Shown here: piece after piece, positions 12,796 to 39,852 of the stretch
How positions within the stretch are numbered: position 1 is the stretch's first letter
How the letters are laid out: each line of letters opens with the position of its first letter
Origin: an uncultured bacterium
GTDB lineage: Bacteria; Oederibacteriota; Oederibacteriia; Oederibacteriales; Oederibacteriaceae
Direction of reading: 5' to 3'
NCBI GenBank assembly: GCA_965112635.1
Contig: OZ218778.1
Location: 864,001-928,000, forward strand
DNA: 64,000 nt
Notes under the pieces: generated by a model
The model's database searches: none
What the model was told of the DNA's origin: nothing
What the model saw: the letters and a program-made list of their open reading frames with translations, nothing else
Program-made: the position numbers and the translations under genes

Positions 12796-12871
<76 letters not shown>

Positions 12872-14384: not shown

Positions 14385-14461
14385 AGGCCAGTAGCTCTAA
14401 CGGCTAGAGCGGCGGACTCCAAATCCGCGGGTTGGGGGTTCAAATCCCTCCTGGCCTGCCA
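14385..14461 (+). tRNA. tRNA-Trp(CCA)
   Basis: AGGCCAG acceptor, anticodon loop CTCCAAA, GGTTCAAATCC T arm, CCA end; canonical position before secE. Confidence 0.97.
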
Positions 14462-16389: not shown

Positions 16390-16427
16390 TCAAACGCGGG
16401 TTAATGCCCGCGGGGATGTTTGTATCA

Positions 16428-16572
16428 AGCTTTACGGTCAAAGACAGCAGGCGGATCCCAGAGGATCCTTAAAACCAAACGGTAAGCCAGACGTGAAAGC
16501 CCGCCGAGATCGGAGTGACTGAACGCAATTTTTAACCTCCGGTTATTTTTGACCGGGGGTTTTTTGTTTTTT
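16428..16572 (+). ncRNA. ribosomal protein L10 leader with attenuator hairpin
   Basis: AAGACAGCAGGCGG...GCCCGCCGAG motif upstream of rplJ, followed by AACCTCCGGTT/GACCGGGGGTT hairpin and T run. Confidence 0.75.
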
Positions 16573-16627
16573 AAGTGATGATGAGGACAAGGGTGTTTTC
16601 CATTATATATATGGAGAAGGAGAGGCA

Positions 16628-37241: not shown

Positions 37242-38087
37242 TTATTCCAAATTACTGTTATTGGGCTGGACCCCTTGATTGATGAGGGGAGGTACATGGG
37301 GGGTAACATTGCGGGGATGGTAGCGATGATAATTATTTGGTAATACTCTCATGGCTGGTTTTGTTGGAGTATCAGGGGTATTGACGAGATTAAAATAAAT
37401 GGACAAACCGCATTTTGTGATCATCCCGCTAAAATCCGCTGAGGCGACAGAGCCTTGGCTCGTCTGCAAATTGCCAGTATTCCAACCAGACAGGGTCACG
37501 GGGTTTAATCTGACCGAGCGATAGCCGACATCCATTCCTATAGAAAAGTTGGGTGCGTAGAAATATTCTACGCCCACTGTATAAATCAAACCAAGGCCTG
37601 AGGCGTTATAACTTGTCCCAGAATAAAAAGGGGAAGGAACATTACTGGTGTCATGGCCGTTCAGTATTTCATAGGCTACGGCTACATCCGACCGCAAACT
37701 CAAGCTGGGCAAAACATTTGGCCAAATATAACCTCCTTTTACAGCCAGTTCATATAAAGGAAGGACCAGGTTGTAACTGTAACCATAAGAGTCTGTGTTG
37801 ACGCTGGATGCATAAATATAATCAAAAGATATTCCACCTTCGATATTGGGGCTAAATCCATACATCAGAGAACCCCCGGATCCCATTCCACTGTTAATCG
37901 GAGCTAGGCTATTGCTACTCAAAGGTGAGATGGTGTTGTTGTTCAAACAATCATTGATGTCACCCATTGTTTCACTTGCAAAATCAATATTACCGCTGAC
38001 ACCCAATTTGCCTTCCCGTCCTTCAGCAAAGGCATCTATGGTTATCAAAATAAAAAGGAGAAAAAAGGTTAACTTTTTCACATTCAA
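37242..38087 (-). CDS. outer-membrane beta-barrel-like protein, paralog of 29037..29984
   Basis: shared GREG.LG, D.SNVP, NASGLG..Y.VG.E.F, G.D.GYR, PV.LSG.NTGN motifs. Confidence 0.65.
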   Translation of the reverse strand: MNVKKLTFFLLFILITIDAFAEGREGKLGVSGNIDFASETMGDINDCLNNNTISPLSSNSLAPINSGMGSGGSLMYGFSPNIEGGISFDYIYASSVNTDSYGYSYNLVLPLYELAVKGGYIWPNVLPSLSLRSDVAVAYEILNGHDTSNVPSPFYSGTSYNASGLGLIYTVGVEYFYAPNFSIGMDVGYRSVRLNPVTLSGWNTGNLQTSQGSVASADFSGMITKCGLSIYFNLVNTPDTPTKPAMRVLPNNYHRYHPRNVTPHVPPLINQGVQPNNSNLE

Positions 38088-38252
38088 ATTCCTTCTTCAG
38101 AGATGTAAAAACATTTTATGCTAATATAATACTTTAGAATTATCAATTTTGTACCAATTTGTAACTATTTGTATAATGATTTTTTTCTGGAGCCCTGTCT
38201 GTGATGATTTATGGTGTTATGATAGTATTAAATATGTTGTTAGAAGTGATTT

Positions 38253-38424
38253 AGAGGAATCAGAGGTTAAGGGCCATCGGGCCGCTTAACCAGCCGGGAG
38301 CGAGGTTTAAAAGCTCAAGCGTCCCTTGGAGGGCGTCCGGTGCCGGTTCAATTCCGGTGCAGGCAGTTCCTTGATAAGTGAGAACTTAAAAAGAAAAACT
38401 GTCAGTTCCTGCCTGTTTTCCTCT
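38253..38424 (+). ncRNA. candidate structured RNA with tRNA-like T arm (unassigned)
   Basis: GC-rich island in AT-rich intergenic DNA with several nested stems and a GCCGG-TTCAATT-CCGGT arm. Confidence 0.55.
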
Positions 38425-38443
38425 CCTAGAAAGGTGTCTGAGT

Positions 38444-38953
38444 ATGGCCATATCCAAGAAAGTTTCCCCGGTAAAAAAACTTATCCGTAAATTGACAAAT
38501 TTCAGTTTTGGCGGCACCTCGGCCATTATCACCAACATCAGCCTTATCATTGGTTTGGGCACCTCGGATGTGTCCAAATCGGGCATTATTGGCGGCTTGC
38601 TGGTCATTGCCCTGGCTGACAATATTTCCGACTCCCTGGGCATCCATATTTATAAAGAATCGGAAAGCAACAAAATCAGAGAAACCTTGATATCAACCCT
38701 GAGCAATTTTTTTACGCGACTCCTTGTTTCCTTCACCTTTATTGGTGTCGTTCTCATGTTTTCGACAGGACAAGCGCAGATCATTGCGGCAGTTTGGGGT
38801 CTGTTCTTGATCGGAGTCATCAGCTATTTCATCTGCCGCAAAAACCAGAGCGATCCTACCGTTGAAATCGCCACGCATATCGCCATCGCCATCCTGGTCA
38901 TCATAGCCAGCAAGTATATGGGTTATTTGATCCATGAACATCTGACGAAGTAA
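38444..38953 (+). CDS. VIT1/CCC1-like membrane protein (putative metal transporter)
   Basis: FSFGGTSAIIT, IALADNISDSLGIH..E motif, about five TM helices. Confidence 0.6.
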   Translation: MAISKKVSPVKKLIRKLTNFSFGGTSAIITNISLIIGLGTSDVSKSGIIGGLLVIALADNISDSLGIHIYKESESNKIRETLISTLSNFFTRLLVSFTFIGVVLMFSTGQAQIIAAVWGLFLIGVISYFICRKNQSDPTVEIATHIAIAILVIIASKYMGYLIHEHLTK

Positions 38954-38979
38954 TAGCTGCAAGGCCGGAGAATAGGGAT

Positions 38980-39852
38980 ATGTACCTGGGAGCGCATGTT
39001 TCTGCGGCGGGGAAATTATGTCATGCCTCAGAAAAGGCCAGAGCTTTGGGCTGCAATTGCATGCAGATATTCGTGGGCAGTCCGATGATGTGGCAAAAAC
39101 CCCATTATTCCATCCAGGAGACAGAGCTCTTTAAATCCAAGAACAAAGAATACGGGATAGGCCCTGTATTCATCCACGCCCTTTACCTGGTCAATCTAGC
39201 TTCTTCCAATAATACTTTATGGAAGAGGTCCATAGCTTTTATCGTCCATAGTATGGAGATGGGTGGAAGGATGGGCGCTCGAGGAGTGATCGTTCATCCG
39301 GGAAGCTTTGGGGAAACCAGCCGGGAGCAGGGAATCCGGCGCATCATTTTGGCCGTCCGATCCATATTCATGATGACCAAAGTAGAAATACCTCTCCTGC
39401 TGGAAACAACAGCCGGGATGGGCAACAGTTTAGCGTCGAGCTTGGAGGACTTGCAGGAGATCTATCAAAGACTGAATAAACCCAAGCGATTAAAAATTTG
39501 CCTTGATACCGCCCATCTTTTTGAAGCCGGTTATGATCTCAGTTCCAAAGAAGGGGCCAACAGAACACTCCACGACCTTAGAAAGACCGGGTTGGGCAGG
39601 TTGGCGCTTGCTATCCACGTCAATGATTCCAAAACACCTTGCGGGTCCAAAGTGGATCGTCATGAAAATATCGGCCAGGGACAGATAGGATTGGGCGGTA
39701 TAAAATATTTCCTCCAAAACAAGATGTTCAAGGATGCCTCCCTTATTCTGGAAACGCCAGGCTTTGACCAGAAAGGTCCTGACCTAAAAAACATGGCCAT
39801 CTTGAGAAAACTTTTGAAGAAGAACTTTCCCGCCCATACAGGGAAACTGTAG
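38980..39852 (+). CDS. nfo: endonuclease IV
   Basis: GAHVS, HALYLVNLAS, HPG, LETTAG, CLDTAH, HVNDSK, DRHENIG, ILETP. Confidence 0.93.
   Translation: MYLGAHVSAAGKLCHASEKARALGCNCMQIFVGSPMMWQKPHYSIQETELFKSKNKEYGIGPVFIHALYLVNLASSNNTLWKRSIAFIVHSMEMGGRMGARGVIVHPGSFGETSREQGIRRIILAVRSIFMMTKVEIPLLLETTAGMGNSLASSLEDLQEIYQRLNKPKRLKICLDTAHLFEAGYDLSSKEGANRTLHDLRKTGLGRLALAIHVNDSKTPCGSKVDRHENIGQGQIGLGGIKYFLQNKMFKDASLILETPGFDQKGPDLKNMAILRKLLKKNFPAHTGKL

Follow-up and report, generated by a model that had tools for sequence, protein, structure and literature searches.

We find that the GC-rich island upstream of a small membrane-protein gene in the window, the 64,000-nucleotide stretch of DNA analysed here, is kin to tRNA-Leu, that it has no functional cloverleaf, and that it has no homologue in the collections that we searched. 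The best explanation, to which we assign a probability of about 0.5, is that the island is a relic of tRNA-Leu(UAA) descent, carried in the 5' leader that this weakly VIT1-like gene would share with the nfo gene that follows it. Its core (approximately 38280-38365, and securely 38305-38358) would have come from a long-arm tRNA-Leu(UAA) gene, and would retain from it the seven-base anticodon loop with TAA, the fully paired long arm, and the intact T arm.

The core of the island resembles a tRNA-Leu(UAA) gene

When the threshold of ARAGORN was relaxed to 88%, the program called a tRNA-Leu(taa) at 38280-38365 (Table 1), a pseudo-tRNA call that is sub-threshold only, being lost at 90% and at the default setting. 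A threshold of 80% was discarded as meaningless, as it gave about 2,200 calls genome-wide. The relaxed cloverleaf combines an acceptor stem with 4/7 Watson-Crick pairs, a vestigial D arm of 2-3 bp, an anticodon stem of 3 pairs and a mismatch, a long variable arm, and a T arm; counted on this structure, about three quarters of the expected tRNA base pairs survive in the island. Within the call, the anticodon loop, long variable arm, and T arm are colinear at the order and spacing of a tRNA. In the T arm, a stem of 5 bp carries a T loop of 7 nt that fits TTCRANN (GCCGG-TTCAATT-CCGGT, 38342-58), and 17 nt of this arm match the resident tRNA-Leu(taa) gene exactly. The anticodon loop is identical to that of the same gene at 6/7 positions, and the long arm is fully paired with a sequence unlike the resident variable arm. 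Over the whole alignment 44/84 positions are identical (52%), 17 of them in the T arm, and outside the T arm and anticodon loop identity is near random. In 99 genomes of the phylum there are four occurrences of the 17-mer; apart from the one in the island, all fall inside tRNA-Leu genes (G000 taa, G028 taa, and G078 caa).

Genome-wide, 137 ARAGORN calls at 88% do not overlap real tRNAs. The longest exact stretch in common with any real tRNA is 17 nt for the island and 7-12 nt for the other 136 calls, and the island is the sole call with at least 12 nt for which the matched tRNA has the anticodon assigned by ARAGORN. The island has the features of a tRNA-Leu(UAA)-derived sequence, with the covariance-model test of this assignment extending only to the T arm: a model of five tRNA-Leu genes of the genome (R2) aligned the T arm alone, at 10.1 bits, and the island was absent from the 23 matches of this model genome-wide at E <= 10. 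An Rfam search of 38286-38375 at E <= 10 returned a 12.4-bit match on the minus strand and an 11.5-bit local match to tRNA-Sec (E 5.9), the latter covering the variable and T arms of the island.

The original prediction had noted an echo of tRNA-Leu(TAA), and this is upheld as to origin by the 17-nt T arm, the relaxed ARAGORN call, and the unique standing of the island among the 137. From these comparisons we consider it quite probable that a tRNA-Leu(UAA) gene was the ancestor of the core of the island. A recent duplication of the resident tRNA-Leu(taa) gene was considered as the origin and rejected, since the flanks are unrelated, identity is 52%, and the long arm differs; the source is more readily seen as a paralogue since lost, or as a foreign tRNA-Leu whose T arm was the same.

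The description of the element as lacking a proper D arm, acceptor stem, and CCA was correct on the relaxed cloverleaf. ARAGORN at default settings found no tRNA at the island (a tRNA-Thr and a tRNA-Trp were its only calls in the window), and Rfam RF00005 had no match there at the gathering threshold or at E <= 10. Compared with tRNA-Leu(UAA), a type II tRNA, the island shares the 17-nt T arm letter for letter, and has a loop of seven bases that includes U33 and TAA as well as a paired long arm at tRNA spacing and with the same strand logic. It differs in having no 7-bp acceptor stem (4/7 pairs), no discriminator and CCA (GTTCC in place of NCCA), no D arm bearing the conserved GG (2-3 bp are left of this arm in the relaxed call), and an anticodon stem of 3 pairs. 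With pairable acceptor stem, D arm, and CCA end all lost, the island is unable to act as a tRNA.

The island is GC-rich and is predicted to fold stably

The element had been described as a GC-rich island in AT-rich DNA, and GC is indeed 0.59 at 38250-38349 compared with 0.22-0.29 at 38050-38249. GC of 0.64 is maintained inside an intergenic region of 0.30, and the contrast between the island and the rest of its own intergenic region ranks 2/437 genome-wide (richest 100 nt compared with the remainder; regions shorter than 200 nt excluded). Such islands were uninformative as pointers to RNA genes: Rfam matched 0 of the 20 highest-ranking other non-tRNA islands, which leaves no useful base rate.

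The + strand of 38253-38424 folded at -71.3 kcal/mol (z -4.40), with 0/200 dinucleotide shuffles as good, and the - strand at -62.4 kcal/mol (z -3.86). Of the 61 pairs in the + strand fold 7 are G-U, which fits an RNA read toward the downstream genes. Corrected for GC, the folding energy of the island ranks 67/4,282 among intergenic window-strands, with the island optimally framed and the others not. The island is a real and unusual GC island with a stable fold, and its stability by itself is not exceptional.

Re-reading of the sequence and a repeat finder located all of the inverted repeats and helices that had been proposed. The pairs AGAGGAA/TTCCTCT (38253-59/38418-24), GGTTAAG/CTTAACC (38265-71/38285-91), and CAGGCAG/CTGCCTG (38360-66/38409-15) are 100% complementary. 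In the predicted ensemble the closing stem (pair probabilities 0.73-1.0), the 38265-91 hairpin, the 38319-36 hairpin, and the T-arm hairpin are near-certain, and a long-range stem, 38295-301/38405-411, is also dominant (0.53-0.78). The 11-bp hairpin at 38265-91 shares its 3' strand with the beginning of the sub-threshold tRNA call. Two of the proposed stems have their sequences in place and form in a minority of conformers: the pair probability is about 0.2 for GCCGGG/TCCGGT (38293-98/38336-41) and 0.075 for CAGGCAG/CTGCCTG; imposing both gave -66.9 rather than -71.3 kcal/mol, a penalty of 4.4 kcal/mol. The second of these stems competes with the GGCAGTT/AACTGTC hairpin, and the two had been proposed to switch. 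The size of the energy gap permits this, but GGCAGTT/AACTGTC dominates the ensemble, and alternative pairing of the island is possible on thermodynamic grounds only.

Table 1. Features of the island and of the surrounding genes.
Feature	Position	Strand	Evidence or remark
Outer-membrane beta-barrel (OMP) gene	37242..38087	-	Pfam OMP_b-brl, E 7e-07
Candidate promoter, TTGTAC, 17-nt spacer, TATAAT	38149..38177	+	Putative; read by eye
GC-rich folded island, 172 nt	38253..38424	+	Closed by AGAGGAA 38253-59 / TTCCTCT 38418-24
11-bp hairpin GGTTAAGGGCC / GGCC-g-CTTAACC, loop ATCG	38265..38291	+	Pair probabilities 0.99-1.0
Degenerate tRNA-Leu(UAA)-like sequence, 86 nt	38280..38365	+	ARAGORN at threshold 88%
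Seven-base anticodon-like loop, TAA at 38308-38310	38305..38311	+	Resident tRNA-Leu(taa) has CTTAAAA there
Hairpin GCGTCC(C)...GGGCGT at the long-variable-arm position	38319..38336	+	Pair probabilities 0.65-0.99
T arm, 17 nt, equal to positions 61-77 of the resident tRNA-Leu(taa) gene C1:1435390-1435478	38341..38357	+	Exact identity
AU-rich extended hairpin closed by GGCAGTT/AACTGTC	38362..38403	+	Pair probabilities 0.78-0.92
Likely ribosome-binding site of the membrane-protein gene, AAAGGTG	38431..38437	+	Putative
Membrane-protein gene, 169 aa, at best distantly VIT1-like	38444..38953	+	Family and profile comparisons
nfo (endonuclease IV)	38980..39852	+	TIGR00587, E 6.1e-68, 229.1 bits (cut-off 129.65); Pfam AP_endonuc_2

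The island lies in the putative leader of two genes

The island occupies part of a divergent intergenic region of 356 nt (38088-38443). The OMP gene on its left is oriented away, so that no terminator of a neighbouring gene is required in this region. On the right, the membrane-protein gene and nfo are separated by 26 nt and probably form one operon. The tRNA-like sequence is on the sense strand with respect to these genes and ends about 80 nt ahead of the start codon of the membrane-protein gene. If transcribed, the island would be part of the 5' leader of both genes. No contig from three metatranscriptome runs of the same study covered 37900-39100, a result that speaks neither for nor against transcription. 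The candidate promoter would start a transcript near 38185; a consensus scan did not list it because its first hexamer matches at 3/6 positions, and the same scan listed no terminator-like site in the leader. We also considered whether the island could be a small protein gene and rejected this, as the longest stop-free stretch is 39 codons and has no start.

In predicted folds of 38185-38480 and 38200-38460 the ribosome-binding site pairs with an AU-rich part of the 5' leader at about 38210-38243, and the resulting basal helix takes in both the ribosome-binding site and the start codon. In a transcribed leader, the tRNA hairpins, the flanking inverted repeats, and this AU-rich basal helix would be parts of one stable multi-branched domain, the basal helix of which could reach the ribosome-binding site. 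Any effect of such a domain on the downstream genes would, in our view, be of a generic kind, such as that of a processing site or of stable structure in the leader, and not one of ligand sensing.

Searches for homologues and for known RNA families

The island had been left unmatched to known RNA families by eye, and it likewise matched no family at gathering thresholds in Rfam 15. At E <= 10, a search of 38050-38500 with 4,227 families found only two matches to snoRNA models upstream of the island, which we regard as noise. We then used a covariance model of the island (R1, built from the single sequence) in genomes of the same phylum, to which all 98 comparison genomes belong and in which the source genome is alone in its family. 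The island is single-copy in its own genome, and R1 found no second copy in the 98 others. The sole R1 hit beyond the island (G050, E 0.29) falls within a reading frame of 324 aa on the opposite strand and was rejected.

If the island were a leader characteristic of the membrane-protein gene, it might be expected upstream of related genes. It was not found there: R1 detected no copy at 49 loci encoding relatives of the downstream gene, which comprised 47 metagenome loci (relatives at 40-66% identity) and 2 phylum loci (53% and 37%). Three matches at E 0.78-3.4 were obtained over these loci, none of them convincing. The two closest relatives are preceded by an AT-rich spacer of 177 nt and by a spacer of roughly 40 nt, and the two phylum relatives have no island-like leader. 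Rfam found no riboswitch at 20 of the 47 metagenome loci; its matches there were tRNA genes only (7 in 6 loci), and in one of the metagenome loci (L009) a tRNA-Tyr ends 68 nt ahead of the relative of the downstream gene. With no copy in the 98 genomes or at the 49 loci, the island is not a conserved leader of the downstream gene family.

Searches at the DNA level gave a similar picture. Across 60 relatives a single 22-nt match was found (E 0.007, in G031), and blastn returned five 29-nt matches in phages (E 0.6, nothing useful) and none in plasmids. A gapped pattern running from loop to loop, scanned through the genomes of 185,579 species, recovered 4 stretches, none of them a tRNA or an R1 match. 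Three of these are within open frames; the remaining one is AT-rich, without a comparable fold. These candidates were set aside.

Cis-regulation and metal sensing

The element had been proposed as a new cis-regulatory RNA, possibly one that senses metal, and we found no support for this proposal: there is no Rfam match to the island and no copy at the 49 related loci. Metal riboswitches such as yybP-ykoY (Mn2+) and czcD (NiCo) are leaders of metal exporters. The island is likewise a multi-stem leader ahead of a putative metal-transporter gene, but it has no Rfam match, it is not conserved before related genes, and the transporter assignment is weak. The VIT1-like label given to the downstream protein has weak support. 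Among 16 aligned relatives, 9 match Pfam VIT1 weakly (best E 4.4e-6) and 10 match DUF1516; on the other side, the 169-aa protein itself has no Pfam match at E <= 0.001 and none to VIT1 (PF01988) at E <= 10, and a profile search of the PDB with the family returned no VIT1 chain. These profile comparisons point to a weak identity for the transporter behind the metal idea.

The island might still be a lineage-specific cis-regulatory leader, riboswitch-like or otherwise controlling translation, in which tRNA-like hairpins serve as building blocks and the domain holds or frees the ribosome-binding site on a ligand, protein, or temperature cue. Such a leader would account for the place of the island on the sense strand of a divergent intergenic region, just ahead of the ribosome-binding site, for its GC contrast (rank 2/437), and for a fold with z -4.40 and 7 G-U pairs that is 8.9 kcal/mol more stable on the + strand than on the - strand. 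It would also suit the two alternative pairings within 4.4 kcal/mol and the folds of the longer leader, with ribosome-binding site and start codon in the basal helix. We nevertheless consider it unlikely. No collection that was searched holds a homologue, and hence there is no conservation or covariation to support such a leader; relatives of the downstream gene do without it, and no Rfam riboswitch is present at the 20 loci of relatives. Moreover, no terminator-like site was listed in the leader, the GC-corrected stability is only 67/4,282, and the weak identity of the transporter undercuts the metal idea. The original prediction had itself named a pseudo-tRNA call, or a lack of conserved structure at homologous loci, as findings that would speak against a new RNA. 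Both were largely obtained, the pseudo-tRNA call at sub-threshold level only.

Chance resemblance to a tRNA

A very unlikely alternative is that the resemblance to tRNA-Leu is fortuitous, and that the island is GC-rich palindromic DNA, for example a foreign scrap, with neither tRNA ancestry nor RNA function. Single elements of the resemblance are cheap. T-arm-shaped hairpins outside tRNA genes number 15 in the genome and on average 13.1 (range 9-18) in 10 shuffled genomes, so that such a hairpin by itself is at chance level. About one 17-mer match to a tRNA is expected per genome (2,937 17-mers x 5.75 million positions / 4^17), sub-threshold ARAGORN calls are common (137 at 88%), and the tests based on covariance models fail past the T arm. 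The local-alignment score of the island against tRNA-Thr(ggt) equals that against tRNA-Leu(taa), and 3/300 shuffles reach the same score.

Chance would, however, have to supply four coincidences together: the exact T-arm 17-mer, its orientation, a correctly spaced loop with the cognate anticodon, and a paired long arm. We estimate this joint coincidence at about 1 in several thousand per genome. Empirically it is seen in 1/137 calls, the next best of which shares 12 nt with a real tRNA.

tRNA-like modules and a possible role in recognition

tRNA-like modules occur in non-coding RNAs, among them the Y RNA YrlA and the tRNA-like domain of tmRNA. The island likewise has a canonical T arm within a larger RNA fold, the ends of which are paired, and it differs from them in having no acceptor-like stem stacked on the T arm. 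Rfam gave no Y RNA, YrlA, or tmRNA match at the island. As a Y RNA the island was rejected, since a search of the genome (96.9% complete) yielded no TROVE/Rsr protein (PF05731); the same search was positive in 2/14 control genomes. A tmRNA or permuted tmRNA was rejected too, as the genome has a normal tmRNA elsewhere (C1:1360681-1361027).

A related possibility is that the T arm and anticodon-like loop have been kept by selection for a factor that recognises tRNA. RNase P, RNase Z, a synthetase, or an enzyme that modifies T arms could be the binder, giving rise either to an mRNA with a processed 5' end or to a stable small RNA. The likeness to tRNA-Leu is uneven in the way expected from selection, with 17/17 positions kept in the T arm, 6/7 in the anticodon loop, and the remainder near random, and the T loop has the canonical G-TTCAA-..-C form. 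Yet the same unevenness is explained by descent from a different tRNA-Leu(UAA), as the same T arm is present in other genomes. The acceptor stem that RNase P, RNase Z, or a synthetase would need is unpairable here (4/7), and CCA is missing; for a role like that of Y RNA, no Ro/TROVE protein was found. We rate this kind of mimicry as slightly less probable still than chance resemblance.

Source and possible consequences of a tRNA relic

If the island is a tRNA-Leu(UAA)-derived relic, as we favour, its source may have been a lost or foreign tRNA-Leu gene, or an old integration site. No integrase or transposase is encoded within about 10 kb of the island (15 neighbouring proteins scanned), so an integration-site origin is possible and has no local support. 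A plain relic leaves two features unexplained, namely the perfect 11-bp hairpin formed with upstream sequence and the GC of 0.64 compared with 0.30. Both the hairpin and the retained GC would fit selection on structure, and it is because of them that the functional readings stay alive.

The boldest of these readings, and to us the least probable of all those considered here, is that a lineage-specific leader has taken over a worn tRNA-Leu(UAA) copy as its module for sensing or recognition. Binding of the T arm and anticodon loop by a tRNA-recognising factor would be linked, through the flanking helices, to exposure of the ribosome-binding site of a gene pair for metal handling and DNA repair. 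Were this so, the leader would act as a tRNA look-alike instead of binding a tRNA. To our knowledge, tRNA-derived regulatory leaders are rare in bacteria. If instead the island is a plain relic, it is an ordinary fossil copy of a tRNA in a leader and of local interest only, and it illustrates that a GC-rich island may be striking, with several stems and a perfect T arm, and yet not be a new riboswitch. Its significance would grow if close relatives had kept its non-tRNA helices.

tRNA fragments elsewhere in the genome

The genome has 48 tRNA calls beside its ordinary tmRNA. Exact copies of tRNA segments of at least 17 nt were found outside tRNA genes at 8 loci, against the chance expectation of about 1 given above. 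tRNA fragments are unusually common in this genome, and this retention of tRNA pieces counts in favour of the relic reading. One of the 8, an 18-nt match to tRNA-Met within a coding region, is of the kind expected by chance. Two others hold the 5' half of tRNA-Pro and that of tRNA-Cys, both breaking off at the anticodon loop. The corresponding intact genes are 57 kb and 22 kb away and each adjoins an integrase; the pattern looks like that of two integrated islands.

Like these att-site relics of tRNA-Pro and tRNA-Cys, the island is partial, intergenic, and far from an intact gene. The clear relics of the genome differ from it in being 100% identical to their parent over 19-50 nt and in ending at the anticodon loop or the 3' end, whereas the island is identical in the T arm only. 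They also adjoin an integrase or the parent tRNA; the island is 533 kb from its parent gene, with no integrase within about 10 kb.

A separate observation concerns a structured element that is present elsewhere in the genome in six copies, is linked to tRNA genes, and has no Rfam match. Every copy ends in, and pairs with, a copy of the 3' end of the neighbouring tRNA. Four of the 8 fragment loci are members of the element, as are two loci with shorter tRNA copies (15-16 nt and 14 nt), and with a model built from it (R3) its members score 55.7-110.3 bits. Membership of the island in this group was rejected, as R3 scores nothing in 38000-38600 above 4.7 bits (E 0.56). A limited full-text search of the literature found nothing relevant to the island or to tRNA-linked repeats. 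The six-copy tRNA-linked element may merit a study of its own, and it may be more interesting than the island.

A tRNA-linked element repeated within the genome

Outside the window, the same genome carries six copies of a GC-rich structured element of approximately 100–118 nt. In five of the six copies a tRNA gene (Leu-cag, Arg-tcg, Leu-gag, Gln-ctg or Leu-tag) lies ~45–70 nt upstream, and the 3' end of that tRNA, from the T loop onward, is copied exactly (15–50 nt) at the end of the element. The sixth is instead situated upstream of tRNA-Ser(tga) and carries a 14-nt tRNA copy. In all five tRNA-downstream copies the copied T-loop/T-stem segment is complementary to the element's 5' end, with which it can pair, so that the resulting helix differs according to the tRNA; no such 5'-end complement to the copied segment was seen in the Ser-linked copy. 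RNAalifold predicted 23 pairs, 10 of which show compensatory changes.

The element had no match in Rfam. Searching the genome with R3, a covariance model of the element, returned these six copies only, and none was found in 98 other genomes related at the phylum level. None of 17 viral contigs selected by the element's core motif was convincing, and no TnpB-like gene was present in the window's own genome. Candidate identities for the repeated element are a miniature integrative element and a tRNA-linked RNA.

Locations of the features on the contig of the window's own genome (G000 C1) or in the window
Feature	Location	Strand	Details
Six-copy element (L088–L093)	C1:114739-114841	+
Six-copy element (L088–L093)	C1:2421802-2421912	+
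Six-copy element (L088–L093)	C1:2690966-2691083	-
Six-copy element (L088–L093)	C1:102970-103079	-
Six-copy element (L088–L093)	C1:669126-669237	-
Six-copy element (L088–L093)	C1:1439453-1439565	+
tRNA-Pro(tgg) 5'-half copy	C1:961335-961373		exact, blocks of 16 + 23 nt; intergenic
tRNA-Cys 5'-half copy	C1:1405262-1405298		exact, 37 nt; intergenic
Integrase match	C1:1018189-1018653
Integrase match	C1:1426387-1426896
ARAGORN default "tRNA" (Ala-ggc or Lys-ttt)	C1:1279584-1279679	-	96–97 nt
ARAGORN default "tRNA" (Ala-ggc or Lys-ttt)	C1:1910050-1910146	+	96–97 nt
16-codon open frame	window 38204-38254	+	MIYGVMIVLNMLLEVI; read directly from sequence
L10 leader, RF00557	window 16420-16574	+	47.2 bits (gathering score 44)
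tRNA-Thr	window 12796-12871
tRNA-Trp	window 14385-14461

Other tRNA-associated features

Partial tRNA copies of a second kind, both ending at the anticodon loop, lie 57 kb upstream of the intact tRNA-Pro(tgg) gene and 22 kb upstream of that for tRNA-Cys, and a tyrosine integrase directly precedes each intact gene. These half-repeats probably bound two integrated islands.

The gene downstream of the folded island in the window encodes a 169-aa membrane protein, and among 20 scanned metagenome loci encoding its relatives, six (L009, L015, L025, L032, L035 and L050) have one or two tRNA genes on the same strand within 3 kb upstream (Tyr; Asn, twice; Arg and His, twice; Gln). At L009, 68 nt separate the end of tRNA-Tyr from the relative's start codon. 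This gene family may often be positioned just after tRNA genes.

Features in and beyond the window

Ahead of the island is a 16-codon open frame with GGAG 11 nt 5' of its ATG. The stop codon of this frame runs two bases into the 5' end of the stem that closes the island. The frame may encode a leader peptide, or it may have arisen by chance in AT-rich sequence.

Only one intergenic region of the genome, C1:754303-754602, contains a GC island stronger than the one described in the window, with a GC fraction of 0.58 against 0.21 in its surroundings. Rfam returned nothing for this region, and no reading frame across its island stays free of stops for more than 47 codons. Two ARAGORN calls, in whose printed sequences no T loop was recognizable, are probably false. 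Within the window, a ribosomal protein L10 leader lies downstream of tRNA-Thr and tRNA-Trp, the usual order for that gene cluster.
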